Assembly: GCA_965203555.1 (NCBI GenBank)
Contig: CBDBCY010000004.1
Span: 1,504,001-1,568,000 of the forward strand
Origin: Acidimicrobiia bacterium
Lineage (GTDB): Bacteria; Actinomycetota; Acidimicrobiia; Spongiisociales; ZC4RG35
Length of the DNA stretch: 64,000 bases
Direction of reading: 5' to 3'
The notes beneath the pieces are model-generated. The model saw nothing but the letters and a program-made list of their open reading frames with translations. It was not told where the DNA came from and did no database searches. This document shows, one piece after another, positions 11,926 to 31,896 of the stretch (position 1 is the stretch's first letter; every line of letters starts with the position of its first letter). The translations under genes were made by a program, and so were the position numbers.

Positions 11926-13038
11926 CTAAGGACGAATCTGGGCAATTATCTCCTCAACAGAGAGGCCTTCTAGGCCCAAGCGCTTCAAAGTGCGACCTTC
12001 GGTTATGGCCTTTTGCAAACCAACGGCGGACGCCATGGTCAGCAAGGCCGAGGCCACTGGGGTAGGCACCCCGGCCACCTTTGCCAACTCCACCATCGGC
12101 AGGAGTCCGTAACCGAAGTCCTCGGTGTAGTAGCGATGACCCAGAGAATCGGGGGCCATTATCCGGGCGTTGGCGCTGCCGGTGGAAATCGCTCCCTGTA
12201 TGTCGTCCAGATCTGCGCCGGGGTCCACCGTGCCGATGGCCGACATCTCCTCCATCAGGGACCACAAACGGTAACCAAAGGCGGAGGCCACTGCCAGCCG
12301 CTCTTCGTCCAGGCTCGCCATGACCGACGCCACCCCCGAAGTCATCCCTTCCACATAGAACCGGAAATCCCCACCGGTGGCCTCCACCCAGGCCGCTCCC
12401 AGGATGGCACCGGGAGGATGAAGCACCATGTTCACCTCCGCCAGCCCCACCGCCAGGACATCGGGCTGCCTTATCACTCCGGGATACAGCAGATCCGCCA
12501 GATCCAAAGCTCTTTCTCCACCGCCAAGGCATCCGGCCAGCATCCGGGAGGCGGCCCCGGTTATGTTCACCACCCACTGCCAGCCGCCTTCCGCGGCCTC
12601 GTCCCCGCTCGCCGAGGCCGGGAAGGCTCGTACCGTGTAAGGCAGGGTCGAACACTCGGCCACGGGGGATATCGGCTCCAGCCCGGCATCACCCATCACC
12701 TTCGCCACCTCCAAGGCCCCTCCCAGATGCCCGGGCGCCAGTATCACAGGTATCCCGCAGTAGGCATCCGCCAAGAGTCGGGCGATATGACGGTGAGCAG
12801 TGGAAGGCAGGCAAACCAGGATCCCGGCCGCCCCCACCATCGCCGACGGCAGATCGTCAGTGCAGGTAACGGGCATCACCCCGTCTCCGAACACTCCCCG
12901 GTAGGCAAGCCGGAATCCCGTCGGAGGCCTCTGGAGCACGGTGCGACGCCACCAGATGACATCGAATCCCCGAAGCGTCAGGTCCACGGTGGCGCCCATG
13001 CCCCCCGCTCCCCCTCCCATCACCACTATCCGGGTCAT
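11926..13038 (-). CDS. NAD/NADP octopine/nopaline (opine) dehydrogenase family
   Basis: Rossmann GGGAGG, NMVLHPP, LDEERLAVA, HRYYTEDFGYG. Confidence 0.85.
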   Translation of the reverse strand: MTRIVVMGGGAGGMGATVDLTLRGFDVIWWRRTVLQRPPTGFRLAYRGVFGDGVMPVTCTDDLPSAMVGAAGILVCLPSTAHRHIARLLADAYCGIPVILAPGHLGGALEVAKVMGDAGLEPISPVAECSTLPYTVRAFPASASGDEAAEGGWQWVVNITGAASRMLAGCLGGGERALDLADLLYPGVIRQPDVLAVGLAEVNMVLHPPGAILGAAWVEATGGDFRFYVEGMTSGVASVMASLDEERLAVASAFGYRLWSLMEEMSAIGTVDPGADLDDIQGAISTGSANARIMAPDSLGHRYYTEDFGYGLLPMVELAKVAGVPTPVASALLTMASAVGLQKAITEGRTLKRLGLEGLSVEEIIAQIRP

Positions 13039-13041
13039 GGG

Positions 13042-14232
13042 CTACCCCTCACTCGACAGATCCAGGACTTTCACCTCGGCAACCGAGTACCCTTCCACCT
13101 TGGCCAAGTCGACCTCCACTCCCAGGCCAGGCCCGTCGGGTACCATCACCCGTCCCTCTTCGAAACCGAACGCCCCGGTGATCAGGTCATCGGTGTAGTA
13201 GATGCCGGCGATTTCAGGACGGTCGCTACCTTCGGAACCCGAGACCGGGCAAACACTGGGTAGGACAGCGTTCTCCGCCGCCGCTCCCAGCGCCAGGTTG
13301 GCGGCGTTGCCGATTCCCGTTTCGATCGAGCCGCCGATGTCGCACATCATGCCCAGGCGACGGGCGGTCTCGGCTTGCTGGCGGGCTCGGAAGAGGCCTC
13401 CCGGTTTGGTGACGTAACAAGAAAAGTATTCGGCGGCGCCCAAGTCGACCAGTTCCCATATGTCCTCCACCGTCCACGCCGACTCGTCGGCCATCACCGG
13501 CGTATCGATCCGCTGAGCCACCGCCGCCAATCCTTCCGCCCCCGCTACGGGTTGCTCGCACAGCATGATGTCATACTCCTCCTGGGCCCTGGTCACTCTC
13601 ACCGCTTCCGCAACATGGGAATACCCCTCATTCCCGTCCACTCTGATCTTGACATCGGGACCCACTAGTTCCCGGAGACGCCGCACCAACTCCACATCTC
13701 GAACCGGGTCAAGTCCGGTCTTGCACTTGATGGTCAATGCCCCCTCGGCCACTGCCCGCCCGGCTTCCTCCAAGCAGCGGTCGATGGACATGATTCCCAA
13801 GGAATGCGCCAGTTCGATCCCCTGCCGGTGAGAGCCTCCCAGGAGGGTGGATATCCCCACCCCCATGGCCCGTCCGGCCAAGTCGTAGCAGGCCATGTCG
13901 ATCATGGCCTTGGCATAAGGATGGCCCTTGACGGCTTTGTCCATCCGGGCGTGGACCACCGCGATCTCACGAGGGTCGAGGCCGGCCACGGCCGGAAGCA
14001 AGTGGTTGGCCGCCACTGTCTGCACCGTCTCGGGCGACTCGCCGTAGTAGCGCATCGCCGATCCACCCCAGGTGATCCCGGCCGGCGCTTCCCCCCAACC
14101 TTCCAAGTCCTGGTCGGTCCCCAGGCGCAGTATGGCATGGCGACCGATGGGAGCAGTCATCTTGGACGCCCATGTGTGGTGGCGACGAGTAGGTAAGGCC
14201 ACTATCCAGATGGCGGCGGTGGCGATCCTCAC
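13042..14232 (-). CDS. Enolase-superfamily enzyme (muconate lactonizing enzyme subgroup)
   Basis: Motifs GWGEA, KAMIDMACYDL, KCK, metal ligands DGNE / EQP / ADES, PDGPGLGVE. Confidence 0.9.
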   Translation of the reverse strand: MRIATAAIWIVALPTRRHHTWASKMTAPIGRHAILRLGTDQDLEGWGEAPAGITWGGSAMRYYGESPETVQTVAANHLLPAVAGLDPREIAVVHARMDKAVKGHPYAKAMIDMACYDLAGRAMGVGISTLLGGSHRQGIELAHSLGIMSIDRCLEEAGRAVAEGALTIKCKTGLDPVRDVELVRRLRELVGPDVKIRVDGNEGYSHVAEAVRVTRAQEEYDIMLCEQPVAGAEGLAAVAQRIDTPVMADESAWTVEDIWELVDLGAAEYFSCYVTKPGGLFRARQQAETARRLGMMCDIGGSIETGIGNAANLALGAAAENAVLPSVCPVSGSEGSDRPEIAGIYYTDDLITGAFGFEEGRVMVPDGPGLGVEVDLAKVEGYSVAEVKVLDLSSEG

Positions 14233-15224
14233 GTCTTTTCCGTCTCGTAGAGCTCGATCTCATTGCCGTCGGGATCGGCCACATAGACGGTGAGGCCGTA
14301 AGGTCCGGGTCCCAGGGGACGAACGATCCGGTAACCCGCCGCCGCCACCATCCGCTCGAACTCGGCCACTCCTTCCACCTCGAACGCAAAGTGGTCCACC
14401 TGCCCGCCCTTGCCCGTACCTCCTTCGGTGAGCCCCAAGCCCTGCTCTATTCCGATGAAGCGACGTCCGTCCCGAAAAGGCGTGCGGTTTTTGACCTTGA
14501 GTCCCAGCAGATCGACGTAGAAGCGCTCAGCGGCGTCCAGGTCGGTGGTCTCCAGCAGCACATGTCGTATCCCTTTTACCACCGGTCGTAGGCTCTCTTC
14601 CAACCAGTCGGTGACTTGCCCTGACGTCGTGAGATGGGCCAGGTAGTGCGACCAGACTTCCAGGGCGGATGGTTCCCATCGAGGACGGACCCCGGCGATA
14701 CAGTCGGTTACCGCCACCACGTCGTAGTCCCGCAGGTAAGCCTCCCGCACGGTGGTCTCGACACAGGCGTTCAGCGTCACCCCCGTTATGAACAGGGTCC
14801 GCACCCCCAGCATGCGCAGCAAGGCTTCGAGGCGCGTCTCATAGAAGGCGCCGAACCGGTGCTTTTGCACAACCATGGTCGGATCATCGGCCAGACCCGC
14901 CAATTCCTCCACGATCTCCGCATCCCAGGTCCCCGCCAGGGCCGCCACCCTCGAACGTCGCTCGGTGTGGGATGGAAGGCGCTTCCGCTGCCGGCCCCGG
15001 TCCGGTTGGAGATGGGCCTGGACCGTCCAGACGACCGGGATGCCGGCCCCCTTGAAGGCCGAGACCATTTTGCCCAGGGGCGCATAGACCCTTCGGACCG
15101 GACCGACATCCACTCCCGAATCGCCCAAGGTCCCCTCCGGATGGCAAAAGGCGTTCTGCATGTCGATCACCAGCAACGCCGACGATCCTGCGTCGAGAGC
15201 AGAAAGGCTGGAGACCTCGCTCAT
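14229..15224 (-). CDS. Isochorismatase-family cysteine hydrolase fused to a VOC/glyoxalase domain
   Basis: Triad motifs IDMQNAF, KHRFGAF, GVTLNACVETT; C-terminal VOC motifs RHVLL, AERFY, DHFAF, YVADPDGNEIEL. ATG 15224 overlaps the upstream stop. Confidence 0.88.
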   Translation of the reverse strand: MSEVSSLSALDAGSSALLVIDMQNAFCHPEGTLGDSGVDVGPVRRVYAPLGKMVSAFKGAGIPVVWTVQAHLQPDRGRQRKRLPSHTERRSRVAALAGTWDAEIVEELAGLADDPTMVVQKHRFGAFYETRLEALLRMLGVRTLFITGVTLNACVETTVREAYLRDYDVVAVTDCIAGVRPRWEPSALEVWSHYLAHLTTSGQVTDWLEESLRPVVKGIRHVLLETTDLDAAERFYVDLLGLKVKNRTPFRDGRRFIGIEQGLGLTEGGTGKGGQVDHFAFEVEGVAEFERMVAAAGYRIVRPLGPGPYGLTVYVADPDGNEIELYETEKT

Positions 15225-15415
15225 ACGTCGGTGCGATCCGGACCGAGCACGCCGGCCAGTCCCCAACTTTCCCGCGGAACATCATGAATGATCACATGCA
15301 GAGCATCCGGTCGGGCGTCGGCATGTTCCACCATCGCCTCGGTGATGGCTTTCACCAGTCGACGCTTTTGTTCGACGGTCCTTCCTTCCCACATCTCCAC
15401 CGTAACAACCGGCAC
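15221..15415 (-). CDS. 4-oxalocrotonate tautomerase family protein
   Basis: 64 aa with catalytic Pro-1 (PVVTV), GRTVEQKRRL, WGLAG. Confidence 0.92.
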   Translation of the reverse strand: MPVVTVEMWEGRTVEQKRRLVKAITEAMVEHADARPDALHVIIHDVPRESWGLAGVLGPDRTDV

Positions 15416-15530
15416 GGCGCTGCTCCCTTCTTGGTGCTCGCATCTAAATTTAGGGCAGTTGCAGCCAGCCGTTTCCGATAGCCTTCACAGCATCACTCAA
15501 CCACCCGCTTCCGAGGCCCCCCACCCTTCC

Positions 15531-17306
15531 TTGGCCCCCCACCCTTCCTTCATCTGGGAGATGGTAGTTCTGGGTGACCGGATGGCGGCTTTGTCCCTGG
15601 CGTCCGAAGCTGTGGCGGGTGGTCTTCAACGGGTGCTGGTGCTCTCCCCCTCCGACCCCGGGGTCCACCCCGGCCGTTTCGAGGCGCCGGGAATGACGGT
15701 GCGGTACGAGACTGTGGCCCGGCGCGTCCGCCAGGTACGCGGCCCTCTCCTGGTTGTGGACACCTCCACCGGTCCGGTGACGGCCCGGATGGTGGTGTTG
15801 GATCTGCCCCACCCTCCCCCGGATCGGCGCTCGCCGCGAATTGCCGTCGACCCTTCGGTGTCCCACCGGGTGTTCACCCATCCGACCCAATTGGAAACGG
15901 CCCCCGGGGACGTGGTGGTGACGGGAGAGGGTGACGAGCCGGTGGAGTGGACCCTGCAACTCCTGAACGAGGGAGCGAAGGTGGTCCTGTGCATTCATCA
16001 CACCGAATTCGGCAAGATGTCCTTTCTGGCCAGACGAACCGTCCGGCGCCTCGAGGCCCAGCGGCAGATCACTGTGTTCTGGCAATCCCCGCCGACCCGG
16101 GTCTACGACATCAAGGGTTACCCGATGGTGACCTTCGGCAATCGCCAGACCCCCGATCTGCAGTTCGATCATGTGCTGGTCTCAGGACCCGAAGCGTCCG
16201 CCACCCAACTGCTGGAGGGTTCCGGAGTCGAGGTGGAGAAGGGACCTCTCCCCATTCACCTGCTGGTTCACCGGCATGGAATGGAAGAGGACCCCGAGGG
16301 GGTGGTCACCCTCCCCGCCGACCGGGCCTGGGAAACCACGCGGTCCCGACACTTTGCTTCCCTGCCCTTCCTGCCCCACCGGGAGACTCCGGTCCGGGCC
16401 GGGCAGCGGCTGTTCAACCTGGAAAACCGTTTTTACAACGCCACCATTACCTGGTTCCGGAGGGTTAATCCCGATCTGTGGATCGTCAGAGTGCAGCCCG
16501 ACCAGCGCGATTCCCCTCTGGTGCCCGGACAATACGCCACCCTGGGACTGGGTTACTGGGAACCGAGGGTGGACGGCGCCGAAGACCGGCTGGTAGGCGA
16601 GGAGCGACTGGTGAGAAGGTCCTATTCCATCTCCTCCCGTATCTTCGACTCCAAGGGATACCTGACCGATCCGGCCTACGAGGAGCACCTCGAGTTCTAT
16701 ATCGTGCTGGTCCGACCCAATGTGGACCGTCTTCCGGGTCTGACGCCCAGACTGGCTCTCAAACATGAGGGAGACCGGATCTATTTGGGACCCCGGATGG
16801 CCGGTCGCTACACCCTGGCGGGCGTGACAGACCCCTTTTCCGATGTGCTGTTCCTGGCCACCGGCACTGGGGAGGCGCCCCACAACGCCATGGCCGTGGA
16901 GTTGTTCCGCAAGGGACACCAGGGCCGCGTGATTTCGGTGGTCTCGGTCAGATACGCGGCCGACCTCGGATACGTGGCCCGGCACCGGGCCCTGGAAGAA
17001 CGCTTTCCCAACTACCGCTACCTGCCATTGGTCACCCGCGAGGACGCCCCTGGGACGCTGAGGATGCGCATCCAGCAGTTGATCGCCGAGGACCGGCTCA
17101 CCGAGGAGACCGGCCTGGAACTCGATCCCTCCCGCCTGAAGGTCTTCATGTGCGGCAACCCGGCCATGATCGGGGCACCGGAGTGGCTGGACGATCAACC
17201 GACCTTCAGTGAGACGCTGGGAGTAGCCCAACTGTTGGCGGAGCGGGGATTTACCCTCCCTCGTCATGGCGTCAAATCGAATATTCACTATGAAGAGTAC
17301 TGGTAG
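15531..17306 (+). CDS. Ferredoxin-NADP+ reductase with an N-terminal degenerate TrxB-like oxidoreductase domain
   Basis: C-terminal FNR motifs PGQYATLGL, RRSYSISS, LATGTGEAP, FMCGNPAMI, terminal EEYW. The N-terminal half has eroded Rossmann-like segments. Start uncertain (TTG 15531 or ATG 15561). Confidence 0.75.
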   Translation: MAPHPSFIWEMVVLGDRMAALSLASEAVAGGLQRVLVLSPSDPGVHPGRFEAPGMTVRYETVARRVRQVRGPLLVVDTSTGPVTARMVVLDLPHPPPDRRSPRIAVDPSVSHRVFTHPTQLETAPGDVVVTGEGDEPVEWTLQLLNEGAKVVLCIHHTEFGKMSFLARRTVRRLEAQRQITVFWQSPPTRVYDIKGYPMVTFGNRQTPDLQFDHVLVSGPEASATQLLEGSGVEVEKGPLPIHLLVHRHGMEEDPEGVVTLPADRAWETTRSRHFASLPFLPHRETPVRAGQRLFNLENRFYNATITWFRRVNPDLWIVRVQPDQRDSPLVPGQYATLGLGYWEPRVDGAEDRLVGEERLVRRSYSISSRIFDSKGYLTDPAYEEHLEFYIVLVRPNVDRLPGLTPRLALKHEGDRIYLGPRMAGRYTLAGVTDPFSDVLFLATGTGEAPHNAMAVELFRKGHQGRVISVVSVRYAADLGYVARHRALEERFPNYRYLPLVTREDAPGTLRMRIQQLIAEDRLTEETGLELDPSRLKVFMCGNPAMIGAPEWLDDQPTFSETLGVAQLLAERGFTLPRHGVKSNIHYEEYW

Positions 17307-17315
17307 AAACAGGAC

Positions 17316-18218
17316 ATGACTGTCCGGTGGAGCGAGAAGGGGATCGCGGTGGTGGGAGGAGACCGCCGAGAGCAGGAGATCGCCCGACAGGCCGCAGCCA
17401 CCGGAGCCTCGGTCCGTGCCCACGGGTTCCCGTGGCCCGACCAGGGCATCCGCGGCGTGACACTGTGCGGGAACCCGCTGGAGGCCATGGAAGGCGCCCA
17501 TTACGGCCTTCTTCCCATTCCCGGTATCGCTTCGAACGGCGCTCTCTTCGCACCTGCGGCCCCCCGACCGATCATCCTGGGAGTCGGAGAACTGTATTCA
17601 ATGGCCCCGGGCGCCCACCTGATAATGGGTGAGGCCGACCCTCGCCTGCGGGCTGCCGCGGCCCGGGCCGGGATCCGTATCGCAGAATACGAGAACGACC
17701 GGGAACTGATGCTGCGGCGGGGCCCCGCCATCGTGGAGGGGGCGTTGGGAAAGATCATCGAACTGACCGAGATCACCATTCACAACGCCCGGGTGGGAAT
17801 GGTCGGTCAGGGGACCATCGGGTCGCTCCTCACTCGCACGCTGGTGCTTTTGGGAGCGAACGTGCTGGTGGCCGCCCGAAGTCCCGTCCAGCGGGCGGCG
17901 GCGGAAGCCGTCGGGGCATCCGCCGTGCATCTCGATCAACTTGCCGATCATGCCCACCGGCTGGACATGCTCCTCTCCACCGTCCCCGTCCAAGTGGTGG
18001 GAGAAGAGGTGCTCAGCCGGTTACCGGCGGGCGGTCTGGTGATGGATCTGGCGGCGCCGCCGGGAGGGGTGGACTTGGAGTTGGCCGCCCGGATGGGTCA
18101 CAATACCTGCTGGGCAAGAGGTTTGGGCGACCGGGCGCCGGTGACGGTCGGCGCCTCCCAATGGGAGGGCATCCGAAAGAGAATAGAACAGATCGAAGGG
18201 GCGTCCCATGAAAGCTGA
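17316..18218 (+). CDS. Dipicolinate synthase subunit A (DpsA/SpoVFA)-like NAD(P)-binding protein
   Basis: IAVVGGDRRE N-terminus, VEGA, ITIHNARV, GQGTIG, STVP and DLAAPPGGVD match DpsA motifs (IGGDARQ...DLASKPGGTD) recalled from memory. Confidence 0.78.
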   Translation: MTVRWSEKGIAVVGGDRREQEIARQAAATGASVRAHGFPWPDQGIRGVTLCGNPLEAMEGAHYGLLPIPGIASNGALFAPAAPRPIILGVGELYSMAPGAHLIMGEADPRLRAAAARAGIRIAEYENDRELMLRRGPAIVEGALGKIIELTEITIHNARVGMVGQGTIGSLLTRTLVLLGANVLVAARSPVQRAAAEAVGASAVHLDQLADHAHRLDMLLSTVPVQVVGEEVLSRLPAGGLVMDLAAPPGGVDLELAARMGHNTCWARGLGDRAPVTVGASQWEGIRKRIEQIEGASHES

Positions 18219-19554
18219 TTTGGTAATCCGAAACGCCCGAGTGGTTACCCACACCGGAGAATTCCGGGGAGGGGTCTCCGTTCTTGGGGAACAGATAACG
18301 GCGGTGGGCCGCAACGGAGATTTGCCGCAGGGTCGAAAAGTGATAGACGCCGACGGCCTGGCGCTGATGCCGGGAGTCATCGATCCCCACTGCCACCTGG
18401 GGGTCAATTACCCCTATGACGATGACATGGACACCGAGACGGCCGCCGCCGCCCGGGGCGGGATCACCACCGTGCTGCTGTACATTCGCAACCTGGAGCC
18501 CTCCTACGTTCCCTTTTACCGCGACCGCCGCCGCCGGGGAGAGGCCGTGGCCCGAATCGACTTCGGGTTTCACTTCGGGATCCAACGGGAAGAACACATC
18601 GCCGAGATTCCCCGGATCGCAGAGGAGACCGGCGTGCAGTCCTTCAAGTGCTATTTCGGCTACGAGCAGAAGAACCCGATCGGGATAGTGCCCGCCGACG
18701 ACGGCTGGGTGTACACCGCCATGACCAAGATCCGGGAACTCCCCAAGGGGGTGATCTCGGTCCACTGCGAGAACACCGAGATCGCCCGGTGGATAAAGCG
18801 TTCGGTGCAGGCCACGGGGCGGCAGGACCTGGGCGCCTACACCGAGTCACGGCCGGCTTTCTGCGAGGAGGAGACCATCGCCCGGATGATCTTTCTGGCC
18901 GAACGCACCGGTTGTCCCCTTTACGTGGTGCACACCAGCGTGGCGGCGGGTCCCCCGCTGGCCGCCCGAGCCCGCGCCCGGGGCGTGGACGTAACCATCG
19001 AGACCTGCCCGCACTACCTGGTACGCACCGCCTACGACCCCGATCTCGACATGCGGGCCAAGATCTCCCCGCCGCTTCGGGACGCCCAAGAGCAGGAGGG
19101 CCTGTGGGAGGGAATCTTCGCCGGCCAGGTGGAATCGATCGGCTCGGACCACGTTCCCTTCTTTCCCAAGAAGGGCGAGGACCTGTGGGAAGAAAAACCG
19201 GGAATCGTCTCCTTTCCCTGGGAGTTGGCCCTGCTGATGGAACACGGGGTGCATCGCCGGGGATTGTCCCTCTCCCATCTGGTAAAGCTGAACTCCTACG
19301 GACCGGCGCGCCGGTTCGGCTTCTATCCCCGCAAGGGCGCCATCATTCCCGGCGCGGACGCCGACCTGGTGCTGGTCGACCCCGATCGGGTGGACACGGT
19401 CCGCCACACCGGCAACGGGACCTGCATCTATGAGGGCATGGAACTTCGAGGATGGCCGGTGACGACCGTCAGCCGGGGCCAGGTGGTGTTCGAGAACGGC
19501 GAAGTAGACCCCGACTCCCTCGGTCACGGCCGGTGCGTGACACGGCCCGACTGA
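18208..19554 (+). CDS. Cyclic amidohydrolase (dihydroorotase/dihydropyrimidinase/allantoinase family)
   Basis: Motifs PGVIDPHCH, GGITT, SFK (carbamylated Lys), VHCE, VVHTS, ETCPHYL, KISPPLR, GSDH, GADADLV. Confidence 0.92.
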   Translation: MKADLVIRNARVVTHTGEFRGGVSVLGEQITAVGRNGDLPQGRKVIDADGLALMPGVIDPHCHLGVNYPYDDDMDTETAAAARGGITTVLLYIRNLEPSYVPFYRDRRRRGEAVARIDFGFHFGIQREEHIAEIPRIAEETGVQSFKCYFGYEQKNPIGIVPADDGWVYTAMTKIRELPKGVISVHCENTEIARWIKRSVQATGRQDLGAYTESRPAFCEEETIARMIFLAERTGCPLYVVHTSVAAGPPLAARARARGVDVTIETCPHYLVRTAYDPDLDMRAKISPPLRDAQEQEGLWEGIFAGQVESIGSDHVPFFPKKGEDLWEEKPGIVSFPWELALLMEHGVHRRGLSLSHLVKLNSYGPARRFGFYPRKGAIIPGADADLVLVDPDRVDTVRHTGNGTCIYEGMELRGWPVTTVSRGQVVFENGEVDPDSLGHGRCVTRPD

Positions 19555-21708: not shown

Positions 21709-21771
21709 CATGTCCGCATATCCACATAGAATCAGCCACTAAATCCTGAACAGGCAAAGGAGGCGGCCCCG

Positions 21772-23953: not shown

Positions 23954-24066
23954 GTCACGATTCCTTCGGAAGGCTCGACCGAAGGCTAACAATCCCCGGC
24001 GAGTTGGAGGACCGGTCATTGCGGTATCGTTGACTCCTGAGGTATCCGAAGGAGCATGCCCAAAGA

Positions 24067-24972: not shown

Positions 24973-25019
24973 GTGGACAGGTTTGGTAAAGGTCGCGAAA
25001 TAAAGGGGGCGGCAAGGTG

Positions 25020-25049: not shown

Positions 25050-25327
25050 GATGGAGTCGAAACACCTCCCGGTCCGTACCGACGTCGCCCGGACCGCGCA
25101 AGAGCCCCCCTCGGCGGGCAAGAGGTCATATTTCTCTTCGGATCGCGTCCCCTCGGCGGGACCGACGAACCGCGTTCCGAACTGCGGTGGTGGCGGCGGG
25201 GGAGGGGCCCAACGGGCGAGCAGGATCGGGTTTGTTTTCGCGGGATAGGGAGTGATTTCGCGATTCACCGCCGCGGGCGGCGCCCGCTCGACTGCCCTCC
25301 CCGCACCCGGACACATCGCAAAAGGCC

Positions 25328-26782
25328 GTGACTCCTCCCATTTCCTCAACACTTGTCGAACACCTGGAGTTCGTTATCACCTGCGATCAGAGCAACCGGG
25401 TGATCAGTGACGGGGCCGTGCTGATCGAGGGCGATCGGATCGCCGACGTGGGAACCGCCGCCGAGGTAAACGAACGGCTGGACAGGCAAGACCCCAACCG
25501 GCCGGTAAACCGGATGAGCGGACGGAGGCTGGGACTGACCCCCGGATTCGTGGATTCACATGTGCATCTGTCCGAGACCCTGTCCCGGGCGGTGTTCCCC
25601 GATATGATCGACACCCGCACCTGGGTGTTTCACTGGGCCAAGCCCTTCTACGCCCATGTCAGCGTCGAAGACGAGAGGGTGGGGTCGCTGCTGGGAACCG
25701 CCGAGATGCTCCGGGGAGGGACCACCTGCTTTCTGGACATGGGCGCCCAGAACGACCCGGCGCCGGTGGCCGCCGCCGTGGAGCAGACCGGTATCAGAGG
25801 CATCACCGGCCGTCACGCCGCCGACGTAAAGCCAAAACAAATCCCTCCGGGTTGGTCCCCTGAGATGGTGGACCACCACTTTTTCCCCAACGCTGATGTC
25901 GCCCTGGAGGCCCTGGCGGACACGGTGCTGACCTGGAACGGCGCCGCCGGAGGGCGGCTGGGAGTGTGGGTGAACATCGAGGGCAAAGAGCCCTGCAGCC
26001 TGGACCTTCACGTCGGCGCCCGGGAACTGGCCGCCCGGATGGGAGTGGGGACCACCTACCATCTGGCCACCTCCCTGCCGGAGGCTCGAATCTCCCAGCG
26101 CAGGCATGGCAGTTGGCCGGTCACCCGAGTGGCCCGGGCGGGCGGACTGGGCGACAACCTGGTGCTTGCCCATGCCGTGGCCGTATCTGCAGAAGAGGTC
26201 CAATTGCTCTCCGCCCATGGGGCCAAGGTTGCTTTCTGTCCCTCCACCTCCCTAAAGCTGGCCAAGGGCGCCACCTCCATCGGCAAGTACCCGGAGATGA
26301 TGGAGGCCGCAGTGACGGTGGGACTGGGAACCGACGGCGTCTCGGCGGCCGGCAATCTCAACCTCCACCGTCAGATCCACCTGGCCGCAGGTCTGTTCAA
26401 GGATGCGCGGATGGACGCCTCCCTGGTGGGAGCGACGCAGGCGTTGCGCATGGCCACTATCGACGGCGCCACGGCGCTGGGCATGGAATCCGAGATAGGG
26501 TCACTGGAGGTGGGCAAGAAGGCCGATCTGGTGTTGTGGGACCTGGATCACCCCGAATGGGTGCCGTACGGTGACCCTGTGTCGGCACTGGTGTGGTCGG
26601 CGACGACCGCCTCCGTGCACCAGACCTGGGTGGACGGTCGTCCCTGCTACCGGGACGGCCGGGTGGTGGGCGTGGACGAAAGCACTCTCCACCTGGAGGC
26701 CCGCCGACGGGCCGCAGACATCCGGAACCGGGCCGGTCTCGTACGAGAGGACATTCCATTGACTACCTCTCTCTACCAGTGA
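25328..26782 (+). CDS. Amidohydrolase (MTA/SAH deaminase, AtzA-like family)
   Basis: Motifs PGFVDSHVH, GGTTC, LAHAV, CPSTSLKL, GLGTDG, GSLEVGKKAD. Confidence 0.9.
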   Translation: MTPPISSTLVEHLEFVITCDQSNRVISDGAVLIEGDRIADVGTAAEVNERLDRQDPNRPVNRMSGRRLGLTPGFVDSHVHLSETLSRAVFPDMIDTRTWVFHWAKPFYAHVSVEDERVGSLLGTAEMLRGGTTCFLDMGAQNDPAPVAAAVEQTGIRGITGRHAADVKPKQIPPGWSPEMVDHHFFPNADVALEALADTVLTWNGAAGGRLGVWVNIEGKEPCSLDLHVGARELAARMGVGTTYHLATSLPEARISQRRHGSWPVTRVARAGGLGDNLVLAHAVAVSAEEVQLLSAHGAKVAFCPSTSLKLAKGATSIGKYPEMMEAAVTVGLGTDGVSAAGNLNLHRQIHLAAGLFKDARMDASLVGATQALRMATIDGATALGMESEIGSLEVGKKADLVLWDLDHPEWVPYGDPVSALVWSATTASVHQTWVDGRPCYRDGRVVGVDESTLHLEARRRAADIRNRAGLVREDIPLTTSLYQ

Positions 26783-27993
26783 CGGCCACCATCATCCACC
26801 CCCGGCATTTGGCTGCGGATGATCGACCTTCCCTGGTCGGGCCGGTGAAAGTACCCGGACATGAAGGGCCGCAGGTGGTTTCTTTGGAGCGAGGTCTCAT
26901 CAGCAAGGTAAACCACGCCCCTGGTTCTGATCACCGAGCGGCAGAACCGACCTATCTGGCCCTCCCCTCCTTTGCCGAGCCTCATCTGCATCCCGACCGC
27001 GCCTATGTGGGCGCGCCGCGGCCTCCCCGTTCCCTGGATGACGCCATCGAACTGGGGACCCGCCCGGAAGGCTACGTGGTGGAAACAGCCGGGGAGCGCG
27101 CCCACCGTCTCTTCTCAACCCTGGCTGTCAACGGCGCCACCCGGGCCCGCGGCCACGTCGGGCACCTGCCCGCTCACATCGCCCCGCCTCGCTGGCCGGT
27201 GATGTCCCAGGTCCGCGCGGAGTTGGCTGATCGCATCGAGATCGAACTGGTGGCCTTTGCGGTGGAGGGCGCCCTGGCCGATGCCGAGGAGTTGCAACGA
27301 CTCCGCCATGATCTCGCCGCCGGCAGATACCAACTTGTGGGAGGATCGCCGAATCACGATACGCATCCCCGCCGGGCGGTCAGCGCCATCATGAAACTCG
27401 CATCCGATTCGGGAGTGGACGTCGACGTTCACATAGACGAGACGCTTGACCCCGCCCGTCTTCTCATGGACTTCGCCCTCGGAGAGGTGGAACGTCACAA
27501 CCTGGAAGGACGGGTTTCCTTCAGTCACGCCTGTCTGCTGAGCGCTCTGCCGGAGCAGCAGACCCGGGCGCTGGCCCGGCGGATCGCCGGACTGGGAATA
27601 ACCGTCAACTCCATGCCCCGCACCAATCTCATCCTCCACGAATACGGCAATCACTCTGCCCGCCGGGCGCTGGCACCCATCAACCTGCTCATCGAGGAGG
27701 GAGTGCATGTGCGGTTGGGCGTGGACAATGTCGACGACACTTTCTGCCCCTTCCCCACCGCCGACCTCCTGGAGATCGGGTACCTCGCCAGACTGGCGGG
27801 TCACTTCTACGATGACGCCCGACTTATCGCTTCCCTCAGCGACGGCCGGTCGACCCTGCGGATCGGGGAAAGCGCGGATGTCACCTTTGTGAAGGCGAAT
27901 ACCCTCAATGAGGCTCTTTCTCTTCGGCCCGAACGGGTTACCATGAGGGCAGGCGTAGTGGTCGCCTCGGGCCAACAACTGAAACACGGATAG
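26779..27993 (+). CDS. Cytosine/creatinine deaminase-like amidohydrolase
   Basis: Motifs EPHLHPD, DVHIDE, SHAC, PRTN, GVDNVDD..CP. GTG 26779 overlaps the upstream stop. Confidence 0.85.
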   Translation: MTATIIHPRHLAADDRPSLVGPVKVPGHEGPQVVSLERGLISKVNHAPGSDHRAAEPTYLALPSFAEPHLHPDRAYVGAPRPPRSLDDAIELGTRPEGYVVETAGERAHRLFSTLAVNGATRARGHVGHLPAHIAPPRWPVMSQVRAELADRIEIELVAFAVEGALADAEELQRLRHDLAAGRYQLVGGSPNHDTHPRRAVSAIMKLASDSGVDVDVHIDETLDPARLLMDFALGEVERHNLEGRVSFSHACLLSALPEQQTRALARRIAGLGITVNSMPRTNLILHEYGNHSARRALAPINLLIEEGVHVRLGVDNVDDTFCPFPTADLLEIGYLARLAGHFYDDARLIASLSDGRSTLRIGESADVTFVKANTLNEALSLRPERVTMRAGVVVASGQQLKHG

Positions 27994-28002
27994 GGCCGGA
28001 CT

Positions 28003-28752
28003 ATTTCCATCGCTAACTCTGACTATTCCACCCTTATAACCTTCGACAGGGTCAGCAAGACTTTCCCCGACGGGACCCATGCGGTGGATGACGTGTCCCT
28101 CTCGGTGAAACCCGGCCAGTTCGTGACAGTGGTCGGTCCCTCCGGCTGCGGGAAGTCCACGCTGCTGCGAATGGGCTCCGGCCTCCTGCCGGTAAGTTCG
28201 GGCGAGGTACGCCGATCCGACGGGACCCTGGGATATGTTTTTCAGGACGCCACCCTCCTGCCATGGAGAACCGTGCAAAAGAACGTGGAGTTGTTCTGCG
28301 AGCTACGCGGATTCGATCGACGCGACCGACGCCAGAGAGCGGAGGACGCCATCGAACTGGTGGGATTGAGTGGGTTCAAGAAGCATTATCCCGCCGCCTT
28401 GTCGGGGGGGATGAAGATGAGAGTCTCCCTGGCCAGGTCACTTACCCTGGATCCTCCCTTGTTCTTCTTCGATGAGCCTTTCGGCGCCCTGGATGAGATA
28501 ACCCGGGAATACCTCAACACCGAATTGCTCCGCATATTCGCCCACGAGGGGTTCGGAGCGGTATTCATCACCCACAACCTGTACGAGGCGGTTTTCCTGT
28601 CCACCGACGTACTGGTGATGTCTTCCCGGCCGGGCCGCATCCTCAAGTCTTTCGAGGTCCCTTTCCCATACCCACGCGACCTGGACCTGCGCTTCGATCC
28701 GGCCTTCGCAGAGTTGACCGGCGAGGTCTCGGAAGTACTGAGGGACGAATAG
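28003..28752 (+). CDS. NitT/TauT-type ABC transporter ATP-binding protein
   Basis: Motifs GPSGCGKS, LSGGM, FFDEP, ITH. The conserved N-terminal strand ITFDRVSKTF lies upstream of the first canonical start (GTG 28084), so ATT 28003 is proposed as start. Confidence 0.9.
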   Translation: MSIANSDYSTLITFDRVSKTFPDGTHAVDDVSLSVKPGQFVTVVGPSGCGKSTLLRMGSGLLPVSSGEVRRSDGTLGYVFQDATLLPWRTVQKNVELFCELRGFDRRDRRQRAEDAIELVGLSGFKKHYPAALSGGMKMRVSLARSLTLDPPLFFFDEPFGALDEITREYLNTELLRIFAHEGFGAVFITHNLYEAVFLSTDVLVMSSRPGRILKSFEVPFPYPRDLDLRFDPAFAELTGEVSEVLRDE

Positions 28753-29559
28753 ATGACCACCGCCCGGCACTCTCCCTCCCGTCTCCGCTCCTCCACCTAC
28801 CGGCTACTCGCCCCGGTGGTGGTATTCATGGCGGTGGTGGGCATTTGGTATGCCATCAGTCTGAGCCTTGACCCTGATCGGCAGTTCCTGCTTCCCGCTC
28901 CGCATGAGGTCGTCGATGTCGGCTTTGTCAATCAGAACAATCTGTTCCAGGTACTGGAGGGGCTGCTGTGGACGGTGGCGGTTTCCATGACGGGTTTGAT
29001 CATCGCCATCGTGCTCGGGATGACCTCCGCCATCATGATGAGTCAGGCCAAGTGGATAGAGACCTCCTTCTATCCCTACGCGGTGATCATTCAGACCGTG
29101 CCGATTCTGGCCATCGTTCCCCTGGTTGGTCTCTGGCTCGGATTCGGGTTCACCAGCCGGGTGGTCGTGTGTGTGATCATTTCCATCTTCCCGATCATCA
29201 CCAACACTCTGTTCGGTCTGCAATCGGTCCCCGCCTCGTTTCACGACCTCTTCACCCTGCACCGGGCAAACCGGCTGACCCGTCTGTTCAAGCTGCAGTT
29301 CCCCAATGCCCTTCCAGCCATTTTCACCGGGTTCCGCATTTCCGCCGGCCTGTCGGTGATCGGCGCCATAGTGGGCGAATTTTTCTTCCGAAAAGGAATA
29401 CCCGGATTGGGGAGACTGCTCGATCTCTACCGGGCGAGATTGCTCACCGAGCAACTCTTCACCGCCCTGGTGTTCTCGTCCCTGTTGGGCATCCTAGTCT
29501 TTTGGGGATTCGGATTCCTGGGCAGGTTGGCGGTGGGCAAGTGGCACGAAACCACCTGA
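28753..29559 (+). CDS. NitT/TauT-type ABC transporter permease
   Basis: Motifs LPAP, QTVPILAIVP, PNALPAIFTG, GAIVGEF, GLG; six TM segments. Confidence 0.92.
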   Translation: MTTARHSPSRLRSSTYRLLAPVVVFMAVVGIWYAISLSLDPDRQFLLPAPHEVVDVGFVNQNNLFQVLEGLLWTVAVSMTGLIIAIVLGMTSAIMMSQAKWIETSFYPYAVIIQTVPILAIVPLVGLWLGFGFTSRVVVCVIISIFPIITNTLFGLQSVPASFHDLFTLHRANRLTRLFKLQFPNALPAIFTGFRISAGLSVIGAIVGEFFFRKGIPGLGRLLDLYRARLLTEQLFTALVFSSLLGILVFWGFGFLGRLAVGKWHETT

Positions 29560-29637
29560 ATCCAGTGTCGGACAACCTCACATCACCCTCAAGAAAGCTA
29601 TGGAGATGACACGTTGTAAGGAAAGGAGAACCATCCA

Positions 29638-31896
29638 ATGAAAACAATGAAGGTACCGAGGTGGCTGGCCGCCTTGGCTGTGCTGGCCCTGGTGGTCGCG
29701 GCATGCGGCGACGGCGATGACGACGCCGCTCCGGAGACCACGGCCGCGCCTACGGAAACAACCGCTGCCGCTCCGGAGACCACGGCCGCGCCTACGGAAA
29801 CAACCGAGGCTGCCATGCCGGATGTGTCTCTGGCTGAGGTTTGTCCCTCCACGATCGTGGTGCAGACCGACTGGTTCCCCGAGGCCGAGCACTCGGAGTT
29901 GTACCAGTTGGCCGGCCCCGGCGGTGTGATCGATTCCACCAACGGGACCTACACCAACGAGATCGGCGACACGGGCGTGATGCTGGAGGTCCGGGCCGGC
30001 GGCCCCTACATCGGCTTCCAGAACGACATCTCGCTGCTCTACCAGGACTCCTCGATCCACTTGGCGTACACCAACACCGACGAGCAGGTGAGACTGTTCG
30101 CCACCCAACCCACCCTCGGTATCGTCGCCCCTCGCGACAAGAACCCACAAATCGTGATGTGGGACCCGGCCTTGTACTCGTTCGACAGCTTTGCGGACAT
30201 CGGCGCGTCGGGCGCCACGCTTCTCTACTTCGAGGGCGCCACTTACATCGACTTCCTGTTGGGTAAAGGCTGGGTCACCGAAGACCAGATCGACGCCTCC
30301 TACGACGGGTCCCCCGCCCGGTTCATCGCCGAAGGCAACCTGGTCCAGCAGGGATTCGCCTCCGCCGAGCCCTACCAGTACGTGCACGAGTTCGAGGACT
30401 GGGGCAAGCCGGTCGACTTCATGCTGATCCACGACTCCGGTCTGGAGATGTACCCGCAGTTGCTGGCCTCCAAGCCCGACATCATCGAGGAATACCGGGA
30501 ATGTTGGGAACTGTTCGTGCCCATGGTGCAGCAGGCCCAGGTGGACTACGCCGCCGACCCGGCCGCCACCAACGCCCAGATCGTCGAGATCGTGGCCGCG
30601 CTCGACAGCTTCTGGACCTACAGCCCCGGAGTGGCGCAGTACTCCCACGACGCCCAACTCGAGCTCGGGCTGATCGGCAACGGACCCAACGACACCATCG
30701 GCGACTTCGACATGGACCGTGTGAACGCGGTGATTGCGCTGCTCGACCCGATCTACAGCCCGCAGGGACTGGAGACCTACGACCCGAACGTGACCGCCAC
30801 CGACATCGTCACCAACGAATTCATCGATCCCAGCATCGGACTCCCCTCGATGGACATGGACATGACCATGGCCTCTCTGGCTGATGTGTGCCCGAGCACG
30901 ATCGTCGTGCAGACCGACTGGTTCCCCGAGGCCGAGCACTCGGAGTTGTACCAGTTGGCCGGCCCCGGCGGTGTGATCGATTCCACCAACGGGACCTACA
31001 CCAACGAGATCGGCGACACGGGCGTGATGCTGGAGGTCCGGGCCGGCGGCCCCTACATCGGCTTCCAGAACGACATCTCGCTGCTCTACCAGGACTCCTC
31101 GATCCACTTGGCGTACACCAACACCGACGAGCAGGTGAGACTGTTCGCCACCCAACCCACCCTCGGTATCGTGGCGCCTCGCGACAAGAACCCACAAATC
31201 GTGATGTGGGACCCTGAGGTCTACTCCTTTGAGTCCTTCGCTGATATCGGCGCGTCGGGCGCCACGCTTCTCTACTTCGAGGGCGCCACTTACATCGACT
31301 TCCTGTTGGGTAAAGGCTGGGTCACCGAAGACCAGATCGACGCCTCCTATGACGGGTCTCCCGCCCGGTTCATCGCCGAGGGCAACCTGGTCCAGCAGGG
31401 ATTCGCCTCCGCCGAGCCCTACCAGTACGTGCACGAGTTCGAGGACTGGGGCAAGCCGGTCGACTTCATGCTGATCCACGACTCCGGTCTGGAGATGTAC
31501 CCGCAGTTGCTGGCCTCCAAGCCCGACATCATCGAGGGATACCGGGAATGTTGGGAACTGTTCGTGCCCATGGTGCAGCAGGCCCAGGTGGACTACGCCG
31601 CCGACCCGGCCGCCACCAACGCCCAGATCGTCGAGATCGTGGCCGCGCTGGAGAGCTTCTGGACCTACAGCCCCGGAGTGGCGCAGTACTCTCACGACGC
31701 CCAACTCGAGCTCGGGTTGGTCAGCAACGGTCCCAACGACACCATCGGCGACTTCGACATGGACCGTGTGAACGCGGTGATTGCGCTGCTCGACCCGATC
31801 TACAGCCCGCAGGGACTGGAGACCTACGATCCGAACGTGACCGCCACCGACATCGTCACCAACGAATTCATCGATCCCAGCATCGGACTGCCGTAG
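29638..31896 (+). CDS. ABC substrate-binding lipoprotein (NMT1/THI5-like) with two tandem binding domains
   Basis: Lipobox VAAC, PETTAA linker, and QTDWFPEAEH...GGP domain present twice; strong SD (AAGGAG). Confidence 0.88.
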   Translation: MKTMKVPRWLAALAVLALVVAACGDGDDDAAPETTAAPTETTAAAPETTAAPTETTEAAMPDVSLAEVCPSTIVVQTDWFPEAEHSELYQLAGPGGVIDSTNGTYTNEIGDTGVMLEVRAGGPYIGFQNDISLLYQDSSIHLAYTNTDEQVRLFATQPTLGIVAPRDKNPQIVMWDPALYSFDSFADIGASGATLLYFEGATYIDFLLGKGWVTEDQIDASYDGSPARFIAEGNLVQQGFASAEPYQYVHEFEDWGKPVDFMLIHDSGLEMYPQLLASKPDIIEEYRECWELFVPMVQQAQVDYAADPAATNAQIVEIVAALDSFWTYSPGVAQYSHDAQLELGLIGNGPNDTIGDFDMDRVNAVIALLDPIYSPQGLETYDPNVTATDIVTNEFIDPSIGLPSMDMDMTMASLADVCPSTIVVQTDWFPEAEHSELYQLAGPGGVIDSTNGTYTNEIGDTGVMLEVRAGGPYIGFQNDISLLYQDSSIHLAYTNTDEQVRLFATQPTLGIVAPRDKNPQIVMWDPEVYSFESFADIGASGATLLYFEGATYIDFLLGKGWVTEDQIDASYDGSPARFIAEGNLVQQGFASAEPYQYVHEFEDWGKPVDFMLIHDSGLEMYPQLLASKPDIIEGYRECWELFVPMVQQAQVDYAADPAATNAQIVEIVAALESFWTYSPGVAQYSHDAQLELGLVSNGPNDTIGDFDMDRVNAVIALLDPIYSPQGLETYDPNVTATDIVTNEFIDPSIGLP
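29725..29806. repeat. 42-bp tandem repeat x2 in the lipoprotein linker
   Basis: GCCGCTCCGGAGACCACGGCCGCGCCTACGGAAACAACCG at 29725 and 29767. Confidence 0.9.
29827..31893. repeat. Intragenic direct repeat, 2 x 1020 bp, period 1047 bp
   Basis: 29827-30846 and 30874-31893 are nearly identical at the nucleotide level. Confidence 0.97.

Follow-up and report, generated by a model that had tools for sequence, protein, structure and literature searches.

Positions 11926 to 31896 of a 64,000-nucleotide stretch of an Acidimicrobiia genome (GenBank assembly GCA_965203555.1, contig CBDBCY010000004.1, positions 1,504,001 to 1,568,000; this whole stretch is hereafter the window) carry a cluster of some ten enzyme genes together with importer genes. 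That these genes form an undescribed, conserved catabolic set is well supported. On balance, the enzyme families and their context make it probable that this is one catabolic set and that it serves a nitrogen-rich heterocycle taken up by the cell; in this favored reading, the most likely substrate is a pyrimidine-type ring, single or fused, that has amino substituents and carries, or gives rise to, a carboxylate beside a ring nitrogen. The same genes recur in one another's company. All eight of the 4-oxalocrotonate tautomerase family protein (4-OT), the VOC domain, the opine dehydrogenase-like oxidoreductase (ODH), the MLE-subgroup enolase-superfamily enzyme (MLE), the M24 hydrolase, the hydantoinase-like amidohydrolase, the isochorismatase-VOC fusion and the TRZ/ATZ-type amidohydrolase occur together in 26 of 45 well-flanked homologous loci, and in 14 of the 33 such loci that are not closely related to the window. 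Orthologues co-occur at 45-77% identity in Actinomycetota, in Alpha- and Betaproteobacteria, and in one metagenome-assembled genome (MAG) of the Saprospiraceae. That the same orthologues are found together in other phyla suggests more than chance. The original prediction, a reading of the DNA letters alone, had proposed an undescribed catabolic pathway at this place and a check of its genes across phyla; with DpsA as the anchor, that check returned the same orthologues together. Of the two outcomes named beforehand as refuting, a lack of co-occurrence and a match to a characterized pathway, neither was found, and the earlier interpretation is, overall, partly supported.

The host genome (3.4 Mb, four contigs, 95% complete) is represented by a window with a G+C fraction of about 0.62, and the closest relatives found in the DpsA-anchored genome scan are Acidimicrobiia MAGs, several of them of sponge or coral origin. 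Genes were called from Pfam and NCBIfam scans of the long open reading frames (ORFs), with separate inspection of the short ones. Pfam and NCBIfam place the previously listed genes where they had been put, with nearly all of the names holding; that list had passed over an AAA_16 ATPase gene (20533-21708) and a 357-aa ORF (21772-22845). The cluster comprises at least four transcription units on both strands:

11926-13038, minus strand: opine dehydrogenase-like NAD(P) oxidoreductase (ODH), 370 aa; Pfam Octopine_DH
13042-14232, minus strand: MLE-subgroup enolase-superfamily enzyme, 396 aa; MR_MLE_N and MR_MLE_C
14229-15224, minus strand: isochorismatase-family cysteine amidohydrolase fused to a VOC (glyoxalase-fold) domain; Pfam Isochorismatase and Glyoxalase
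15221-15415, minus strand: 4-oxalocrotonate tautomerase family protein (4-OT), 64 aa; called from the ORF and its translation
15561-17306 (likely start), plus strand: fusion of a Pyr_redox_3-like domain and an FNR-type NAD-binding domain, about 581 aa; C-terminal NAD_binding_1
17316-18218, plus strand: DpsA/DpaA-like NAD(P)-binding dehydrogenase, 300 aa; DpaA_N and Rossmann-domain matches
18208-19554, plus strand: hydantoinase/dihydropyrimidinase/allantoinase-like cyclic amidohydrolase, 448 aa; NCBIfam and structure matches
19631-20224, plus strand: Flavodoxin_2 NAD(P)H oxidoreductase, 197 aa; Pfam Flavodoxin_2, 99 bits
20533-21708, plus strand: AAA_16 ATPase, 391 aa; Pfam AAA_16
21772-22845, plus strand: 357-aa ORF; no Pfam match
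22838-24019, minus strand: M24 creatinase/prolidase-fold hydrolase, 393 aa; Peptidase_M24 and Creatinase_N
24067-24972, plus strand: RibD_C-family reductase, 301 aa; Pfam RibD_C, 53 bits
25328-26782, plus strand: TRZ/ATZ-type amidohydrolase, 484 aa; Amidohydro_1, 171 bits
about 26779-27993 (start placed by a 4-nt overlap), plus strand: cytosine deaminase/AtzC-like amidohydrolase, about 404 aa; NCBIfam cytosine-deaminase-like models
27994-29559, plus strand: ABC ATPase and permease of the taurine/nitrate/sulfonate type; ABC_tran and BPD_transp_1
29638-31896, plus strand: lipoprotein solute-binding protein with two near-identical 349-aa repeats; called from the translation

The minus-strand block running from 4-OT through isochorismatase-VOC and MLE to ODH is as tightly packed as had been predicted, with 4-nt overlaps at 15221-15224 and 14229-14232 and a 3-nt gap at 13039-13041. 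On the plus strand, the hydantoinase gene starts 11 nt inside the DpsA-like gene. The frame of the FNR fusion is open from 15288 and overlaps the 4-OT gene, so 15561 is its likely start. The AAA_16 ATPase and 357-aa ORF (20533-22845) have a G+C fraction of 0.58, against about 0.64, and were found in 8 and 4, respectively, of 80 related loci. This rarity and lower G+C give the pair the look of an insertion, and it is probably that, lying outside the conserved set; it could be a regulator pair or a mobile insertion. PADLOC returned no match for either gene.

The loci compared here come from a scan of one genome per prokaryote species with an alignment of 20 DpsA-like relatives. The DpsA-like protein has very many relatives of at least 60% identity, and 1582 of 8000 scored candidates fell at E ≤ 0.001. 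Among 279 matching stretches, 169 encode a DpsA relative; the best 80 of these 169 were taken with up to 10 kb on each side, and they come from Actinomycetota, Alpha- and Betaproteobacteria, Bacteroidota and Acidobacteriota. Presence was called by tblastn of the window proteins against these 80 loci (coverage at least 0.5, E < 1e-10). Many of the 80 are short contigs, and the counts are therefore also given for the 45 well-flanked loci, in which DpsA has 8 kb or more to either side:

4-OT: 68 of 80 loci, 44 of 45 well-flanked loci
ODH: 66 of 80, 45 of 45
MLE: 53 of 80, 41 of 45
M24 hydrolase: 49 of 80, 37 of 45
hydantoinase: 48 of 80, 33 of 45
isochorismatase-VOC fusion: 44 of 80, 34 of 45
VOC domain: 42 of 45
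TRZ/ATZ enzyme: 38 of 80, 30 of 45
ABC ATPase: 36 of 80, 28 of 45
second amidohydrolase: 31 of 80, 25 of 45

Within the set, conservation across phyla is highest for the hydantoinase and TRZ/ATZ proteins (60-77% identity). In four genomes (Pseudarthrobacter sp. P1, two Actinomadura and Pandoraea terrae) the M24 and TRZ/ATZ genes fall outside the fetched flank; a search of the whole genomes located single orthologues of M24 (53-57% identity) and TRZ/ATZ (63-67% identity), side by side in all four. This pair lies at the very edge of the locus in Pseudarthrobacter sp. P1, a few to about 14 kb off by coordinates in Actinomadura if the contig is assumed to be the same, and on a separate contig in Pandoraea terrae.

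Gene order is shuffled between lineages, and certain neighbors stay together. Among loci having both genes, DpsA and hydantoinase are adjacent in 48 of 49, 4-OT and isochorismatase-VOC in 42 of 45, ODH and DpsA in 47 of 67, MLE and ODH in 40 of 52, and the two amidohydrolases in 22 of 29. The usual actinobacterial order, on one strand, is 4-OT, isochorismatase-VOC, MLE, ODH, DpsA, hydantoinase; in the lineage of the window, the first four of these genes, from 4-OT to ODH, are inverted and the FNR fusion is inserted. The cluster has a patchy distribution. When the phylum was sampled evenly, a DpsA-like gene (E ≤ 1e-40) turned up in 7 of 400 other Actinomycetota genomes, one unpublished genome (G120) included; the three genomes sampled from the family of the window are all without it. 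The cluster is also found on 14 alphaproteobacterial megaplasmids (Aminobacter 10, Shinella 3, Phyllobacterium 1). One of these, pShin-03 of Shinella sp. HZN7, carries the whole set together with a GntR regulator, RidA, a CobW-type GTPase and an NMT1 ABC importer, all under generic PGAP product names.

The original prediction had taken all of the listed genes as one pathway. The core does co-occur, but the FNR fusion, Flavodoxin_2 and RibD_C genes were each found in 13 of the 80 loci, all of them close Acidimicrobiia relatives. These three genes lie outside the conserved core and are lineage-specific additions. The closest architecture of the FNR fusion in the Atlas is Pyr_redox_3 plus NAD_binding_1 at about 580 aa (score 0.92, 180 shared features), from an architecture family that is commonest in Actinomycetota. 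The Acidimicrobiia lineage would thereby have added a flavin monooxygenase-FNR fusion, an NAD(P)H flavodoxin-fold reductase and a RibD_C reductase, which may supply an extra hydroxylation or reduction suited to a modified substrate.

The proteins of the minus-strand operon retain the marks of their families. ODH scores 129.1 bits against the Octopine_DH helical domain (gathering cut-off 30), and its best solved relative over residues 5-364 is N-(1-D-carboxyethyl)-L-norvaline dehydrogenase (1bg6, E = 7.6e-35); one conserved His and an HRY..ED block are kept. By these matches it belongs to the opine dehydrogenase family Octopine_DH. The best solved relatives of the MLE protein are the N-succinyl amino acid racemase-type 2p88 and muconate cycloisomerases, all at about 1e-38, and it reaches 192.7 bits against the muconate cycloisomerase subfamily model (cut-off 334.95). 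Across 58 homologues the motifs IKCKTG, RVDGN, CEQP, MADES and TKPGG are conserved, and the active site is intact, with the KxK motif, the D/E/D metal ligands and the second catalytic Lys in roles that we presume from the family. The isochorismatase domain is nearest to RutB and biuret hydrolase, and its Asp-Lys-Cys triad aligns with that of RutB and is intact. It remains below both curated models (RutB equivalog TIGR03614, 95.4 bits, cut-off 377.95; biuret hydrolase NF050097, 85.3 bits, cut-off 370), and it also matches the N-carbamoylsarcosine amidase-related protein 3eef (2e-16). In 4-OT, Pro-1 directly follows the initiator and Arg-11 is present.

The DpsA-like protein has the conserved GxGxxG motif and the solved relatives 2rir and 3d4o. 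Its scores are under the curated cut-offs, at 188.4 bits against NF006162 (cut-off 261) and 168.6 against TIGR02853 (cut-off 319.65). A search for longer, fused forms of DpsA found none, which is weak evidence by the tool's own rating. The hydantoinase-like enzyme aligns with the solved structure 1gkp at E = 7e-61, and its site is intact by that comparison (HxH, the carbamylated Lys, two His and Asp). It too falls short of each curated model, namely dihydropyrimidinase TIGR02033 (293.4 bits, cut-off 393.25) and allantoinase TIGR03178 (276.9, cut-off 357.85) and NF004839 (288, cut-off 631). A complex prediction for the hydantoinase with DpsA gave a score of 0.25 against a mark of 0.32, a value that weighs neither for nor against binding.

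Altered catalytic residues had been predicted for several members of the cluster. The alteration is real in the M24 and TRZ/ATZ enzymes, while the hydantoinase, the isochorismatase triad, the MLE enzyme and the second amidohydrolase proved intact. Aligned to the prolidases 4ege and 5cdl, the M24 enzyme has E,G,H,E,K instead of D,D,H,E,E at the columns that we take to be the metal ligands, and this pattern is identical in 36 of 46 cluster homologues. The window protein lacks the five-ligand dinuclear metal site of prolidase-type M24B enzymes, and it is predicted from its residues to have no dinuclear metal center. The TRZ/ATZ enzyme has AtzA (4v1x, 4e-41) as a solved relative, stays under the cut-off of every NCBIfam equivalog and is 60-68% identical across phyla. 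The position of the HxxE Glu is occupied by Thr in 23, Ser in 15 and Gln in 1 of 39 homologues, and in a profile-profile alignment this column falls on the Glu of the H-x-D-E motif of its neighbor; an invariant Glu stands four residues beyond it. The protein encoded at 25328-26782 thus lacks the complete subtype-III deaminase signature (HxH, HxxE, His, Asp) and, without the catalytic Glu, may catalyze a different hydrolytic step. The second amidohydrolase (26779-27993) matches CodA (1.6e-21) and AtzC (6nbo, 3e-15) and lies under the cut-off of all of the NCBIfam cytosine-deaminase-like models. Its HxH, HxDE, His and Asp are invariant, which completes the subtype-III deaminase signature. For both amidohydrolases, the columns are those that we presume to be catalytic from what is known of the family.

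The ABC ATPase and permease have TauB/NtrCD and SaoP/NtrB as their nearest models. The ATPase frame is open from 27994, directly past the upstream stop, and its N-terminal part is conserved in relatives; upstream of 28084 there is no ATG, GTG or TTG, so a non-canonical start is likely. ATT, ATC and ATA codons occur in this frame at 28003, 28009 and 28036. The binding protein continues after its signal peptide into a Pro/Thr/Ala-rich linker with a 21-nt period and then into two repeats of 349 aa each (29809-30852 and 30856-31893) that are 96% identical as protein; in the DNA, the first 300 nt of the repeats are 97% identical, at a spacing of 1047 nt. The tblastn pieces suggest that two close relatives (L004 and L013) also run into a second repeat and that distant loci have a single copy. 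The importer had been called NMT1-like. No Pfam NMT1 match is present; the name survives as a distant alignment of one repeat to the NMT1-family protein of the Pseudarthrobacter sp. P1 cluster (26% identity over 247 aa, pairwise E = 2e-7), a protein whose nearest solved relatives are 4nmy and the aminopyrimidine-binding ThiY 3ix1. Compared directly with the sequences of solved structures, one repeat matched nothing below E = 1, and its predicted structure (8-row alignment, mean predicted local distance difference test score 50.6) is too poor for fold comparison.

Homologous loci carry further partners. We annotated the leftover ORFs of five distant loci, and we filtered the ORFs of all loci by Pfam and clustered them all against all, disregarding shadow ORFs on the opposite strand. 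The five annotated loci include GntR/FCD regulators in all five, aldehyde dehydrogenases in three, NMT1 binding proteins in three, and, in two each, SDR with xylose-isomerase-like TIM-barrel proteins, 2-oxoacid dehydrogenase E1/E2, and CobW. A conserved 227-aa protein is encoded between the hydantoinase and 4-OT genes of proteobacterial clusters (16225-16908 in the Shinella pShin-03 locus L081, and nine loci); it has no Pfam match and no likeness to the Flavodoxin_2 protein of the window, where it is absent.

A part of the Burkholderiales, Alphaproteobacteria and two Acidobacteriota loci (for example L039, L044 and L060) have an altered form of the cluster. DpsA and 4-OT are kept, mostly with a stand-alone VOC protein; ODH is retained too in the alphaproteobacterial and acidobacterial loci, often along with MLE and M24. 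These clusters have no hydantoinase, isochorismatase domain or amidohydrolases; xanthine-dehydrogenase-family hydroxylases and TctC or MFS transport are found instead. In the DpsA tree these loci form two well-supported clades nested in the proteobacterial clade alongside lineages with the full set; the tree is a quick maximum-likelihood one with Shimodaira-Hasegawa-like approximate likelihood ratio (SH-aLRT) support only and a midpoint root, its careful search being unfinished. We read the xanthine-dehydrogenase form as a derived variant in which hydroxylation replaces deamination for installing the ring oxo groups and the core of DpsA, 4-OT and VOC can act on another ring. The acidobacterial locus L044 has as extras a DHDPS-family gene, DapB, two ODH genes, the 5-oxoprolinase genes PxpABC and a luciferase-like monooxygenase. 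In the host of the window, the whole genome gives ten matches to the molybdopterin-binding domain of xanthine dehydrogenase/CO dehydrogenase-family large subunits.

A catabolic role, which the original prediction also held, has good support in the importer and in the GntR/FCD regulators and aldehyde and 2-oxoacid dehydrogenase genes of the homologous loci. A modified nucleobase or pyridine-type substrate is plausible, fitting the enzyme families and the ThiY-like binding protein, and possible candidates are purine- or pteridine-like fused rings, orotate-like acids, ectoine-like cyclic amidines and base-amino-acid conjugates. Two neighborhoods suggest how the ring may be taken apart. DpsA stands almost always directly upstream of the cyclic amidohydrolase, a pairing reminiscent of how the reductive pyrimidine pathway and nicotinate fermentation first reduce a ring and then open it; 4-OT stands directly upstream of isochorismatase-VOC, which recalls the RutB/RutC step, where ureidoacrylate gives an enamine that needs tautomerization. 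Furthermore, characterized members of the MLE, M24B, ODH and DpaA families act at an N-C(alpha)-carboxylate center, and GntR/FCD regulators mostly sense carboxylates.

On this basis we propose the following order of steps, which draws on the known chemistry of DpaA, RutB, hydantoinases, creatinase and ectoine hydrolase, MLE-subgroup racemases and opine dehydrogenases. The ThiY/NMT1-like binding protein and the taurine/nitrate-type ABC system would import the compound, and the two amidohydrolase-superfamily enzymes would then swap exocyclic amino or alkylamino groups for oxo groups, the CodA/AtzC-like member with its full deaminase site acting as a deaminase and the Thr/Ser variant of the TRZ/ATZ type possibly performing a different hydrolysis. 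The DpsA-like dehydrogenase would saturate or desaturate the ring beside the N-C-carboxylate center, as DpaA does on dihydrodipicolinate, and the hydantoinase-like enzyme would open the cyclic ureide. The RutB-like cysteine amidohydrolase domain would strip the carbamoyl nitrogen as ammonia and CO2, leaving an enamine/imine or enol/keto product to be shifted by 4-OT and the fused VOC domain. The MLE-type enzyme would take the alpha-proton of the carboxylate, by epimerization or by elimination/cycloisomerization; the M24 enzyme with its altered metal site would cleave an amidine or ring amide, like creatinase and ectoine hydrolase; and ODH would oxidize what is left, a secondary amine or an imino acid, giving an amine and a 2-oxo acid. 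Elsewhere, in genomes that have them, the aldehyde and 2-oxoacid dehydrogenases would take over these products.

More tentatively, and as something we consider possible rather than probable, the cluster may represent a widespread, unrecognized hydrolytic-reductive route for aminopyrimidine-type rings (pteridines, purines or a base-amino-acid conjugate being possible) with three new features. A DpaA-type dehydrogenase would have been recruited to prepare the ring for the hydantoinase-like enzyme; the Glu-less TRZ/ATZ enzyme and the M24 enzyme without a dinuclear metal site would do new hydrolytic chemistry; and an NAD(P)-dependent opine dehydrogenase would release the last nitrogen from an imino-acid intermediate.

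Several observations weigh against the reading of one pathway for one ring compound. All locus counts are conditional on the DpsA anchor, and so they describe partners that accompany DpsA and not the reverse. The derived form keeps only part of the set, which implies that the halves can work apart and that the lower half may serve a different ring. Every curated equivalog is under its cut-off, so each step is a family-level analogy. The M24 member is not uniform, since 10 of its 46 homologues have the canonical D,D,H,E,E, and no regulator gene adjoins the cluster within the window. Finally, two deaminases had been predicted; the second amidohydrolase has the full deaminase site, but the TRZ/ATZ enzyme, lacking the HxxE Glu, may not be a deaminase.

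Other readings account for parts of the same evidence. The cluster may specify a route of the creatinine type, with five-membered rings as substrates, either cyclic guanidines or hydantoins (substituted creatinines and glycation hydroimidazolones are examples). Here the CodA-like deaminase would yield a hydantoin, the hydantoinase would open it, the isochorismatase-type amidase would, in the manner of N-carbamoylsarcosine amidase, free an N-substituted amino acid and ODH would cleave that, with M24 acting as a creatinase on the open-chain guanidino form. Four families (the cytosine-deaminase-like enzyme, the cyclic amidohydrolase, the isochorismatase amidase and M24/Creatinase_N) fit the two known creatinine routes, the match to 3eef and the lost M24 metal site agree with it, and the closest relatives of the window are sponge- and coral-associated MAGs. 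We nevertheless regard this route as unlikely: no ATP-dependent N-methylhydantoinase or sarcosine oxidase is among the conserved members, the isochorismatase domain is closer to RutB and biuret hydrolase than to the carbamoylsarcosine amidase relative, and DpsA, 4-OT, VOC and MLE are left without a role. It is likewise improbable that the substrate is an amino-acid conjugate (candidates being opines, imino-diacids and amino acids linked through a ureido or guanidino group, perhaps as a lactam or hydantoin) and not a free heterocycle, with ODH, an MLE epimerase and an M24 hydrolase as the main workers and the ureide enzymes trimming a side group. The constancy of ODH, 4-OT, VOC and DpsA, with ODH in 45 of 45 loci, speaks for such a substrate, as do the closeness of ODH to a true bacterial opine dehydrogenase, the action of the MLE, M24, ODH and DpaA families at N-C(alpha)-carboxylate centers, and regulators of the mostly carboxylate-sensing GntR/FCD type. 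However, the hydantoinase and the TRZ/ATZ enzyme, as the most conserved proteins across phyla (60-77%), argue for a central role rather than trimming, and the importer is ThiY/NMT1-like, not of an opine or peptide type.

That an imino-acid module and a ureide/aminohydrolase module are unrelated operons merely lying side by side seems very unlikely. The derived proteobacterial and acidobacterial form does keep one module without the other, and the window has its transcription units, at least four, on both strands; yet the modules stay together through rearrangements in three phyla, and both the fusion of isochorismatase with VOC (34 of 45 loci) and the adjacency of DpsA and hydantoinase (48 of 49) link a member of one supposed module to a member of the other. 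We give almost no credence to a biosynthetic cluster making an N-heterocyclic or opine-type product. The best-known DpaA proteins and opine dehydrogenases do work in the synthetic direction, but this cluster includes an importer and its lipoprotein binding protein, its enzymes are mainly hydrolases, genes for aldehyde and 2-oxoacid dehydrogenases occur in homologous loci, and no ligase, synthetase or exporter is conserved in the set. Nor do we put much weight on dipicolinate catabolism, a highly improbable account in which the DpsA-like protein would reverse the dipicolinate synthase step and the cluster would be a form of the dip cluster of Alcaligenes faecalis JQ135. DpaA is the nearest characterized family of the DpsA-like protein, the acidobacterial locus L044 pairs DpsA with DHDPS- and DapB-family genes, and dip clusters are, in the part of the report available to us, GntR/FadR-regulated and widespread in Proteobacteria (PMC11472048). 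Against this, none of the six loci in which both a GntR and a DpsA gene were located (14 scanned) has the DipR operator GTATAC between these two genes, and the window has no GntR gene; no DipD-like monooxygenase is conserved in the set; and dipicolinate, with one nitrogen and no ureide, would leave the two amidohydrolases, the hydantoinase and the RutB-like amidase idle.

Other genes lie on either side of the cluster. At 10016-11617 on the minus strand, in the stretch of lowest G+C of the region (0.55), a 533-aa protein combines Schlafen AlbA_2 and HATPase_c_4 domains and has weak PADLOC matches to Argonaute-associated models. After the binding protein, 31982-36258 encodes a luciferase-like monooxygenase (259 aa), two GCS2 carboxylate-amine ligases and an ornithine cyclodeaminase/mu-crystallin (OCD) protein. 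In all five Acidimicrobiia relatives that were searched, an OCD orthologue (81-90% identity) lies 15-18 kb downstream of DpsA; the block is syntenic at the least, and it may be part of the pathway. Farther on, 44428-46638 is a single 736-aa ORF in which a Peripla_BP_6 binding domain is fused with an ABC permease domain of the branched-chain type.

If the set serves to degrade one compound, the cluster would specify a new catabolic pathway in soil Actinomycetota, on rhizobial megaplasmids, in Burkholderiales and in sponge- and coral-associated Acidimicrobiia. It would also provide first physiological roles for families that annotation pipelines now mislabel or name generically, including the "dipicolinate synthase subunit DpsA" of non-spore-forming bacteria, the bacterial opine dehydrogenase outside its Agrobacterium context, the M24 subfamily with E,G,H,E,K and the TRZ/ATZ subfamily with HxxT/S. 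As several carriers are culturable isolates with complete genomes, direct testing is feasible; the culturable carriers include Pseudarthrobacter sp. P1, Shinella sp. HZN7, Aminobacter spp., Amycolatopsis jejuensis, Leucobacter zeae and Pandoraea terrae.

A full-text literature search found no paper combining these families and no characterized pathway with this gene set. The Rut, Pyd, allantoin, creatinine and s-triazine pathways each have one to four families in common with the cluster, which lacks the defining features of each; with the equivalogs under their cut-offs as well, the earlier statement that this is not Rut, Pyd or allantoin catabolism stands. Cluster I for pterin and lumazine in Cupriavidus sp. 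LA-1 uses, in the sections of the report available to us, a molybdenum lumazine dehydrogenase, an Amidohydro_2 isomerase and a UbiD/UbiX decarboxylase to reach xanthine (PMC12391406). As far as those sections describe it, it shares with our cluster the initial deamination of an aminopyrimidine-type fused ring, a CobW-like GTP-binding protein with a zinc amidohydrolase, and a spread over several phyla. However, the window cluster has none of those three enzyme types, and cluster I as there presented is without DpsA, 4-OT, ODH and MLE, the words tautomerase, dipicolinate and hydantoinase having no occurrence in the same text; given its different gene set, we rejected it as the identity of the cluster. 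For the dip cluster, the available part of the report describes only DipD and DipR, gives the regulator as GntR/FadR type and places the operator GTATAC in all dip cluster types (PMC11472048). On that partial description, the operator word is a weak test, and gene content and one-nitrogen chemistry suggest, rather than show, that the window cluster is a different one.

Among the nitrogen-compound pathways, the s-triazine route (AtzA/TrzN, AtzC, biuret hydrolase) is matched by the TRZ/ATZ member, the AtzC relative and the biuret-hydrolase relative, but the set has no AtzD-type (cyanuric acid hydrolase) or AtzF-type (allophanate hydrolase) gene, and its carbon-skeleton enzymes would be needless for a triazine. 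The cyclic amidohydrolase does not reach the allantoinase equivalog cut-off. The creatinine/N-methylhydantoin/N-carbamoylsarcosine route together with creatinase involves the same four superfamilies, as a CodA-like deaminase, a ring-opening amidohydrolase, an isochorismatase-type amidase and a metal-free M24. These are only family-level relatives; HyuAB, creatininase and sarcosine oxidase are found neither in the window cluster nor among the conserved families, DpsA, 4-OT, VOC, MLE and ODH are extra, and the M24 pattern was read against prolidases, not creatinase. DpaAB of endospore formers has the DpaA_N and Rossmann domains of the DpsA-like protein, which differs in being under both curated cut-offs, in a catabolic context, with no DpaB-type flavoprotein gene beside it and in hosts that, from general taxonomy, we take not to form endospores.

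Two further comparisons are with the pyrimidine pathways. Like the reductive pathway (PydA-C) and the nicotinate fermentation of Eubacterium barkeri, the cluster couples a reductase to a cyclic amidohydrolase, with decarbamoylation to follow; unlike them, its reductase is DpaA-like and not a flavin/Fe-S dihydropyrimidine dehydrogenase (DPD), six further enzymes accompany it, and no DPD-type and no nitrilase- or M20-type (beta-ureidopropionase) gene is in the set. As for Rut (E. coli RutA-G), RutA, RutC, RutD, RutG and RutR are not among the families conserved in the 80 loci, the luciferase-like ORF at 31982-32761 not having been scored against RutA, and the ring would here presumably be opened by hydantoinase-like hydrolysis. 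What the two have in common is a RutB-like cysteine amidohydrolase, nearest to the isochorismatase domain, and, by analogy, 4-OT would stand in place of RutC for an enamine/imine product.

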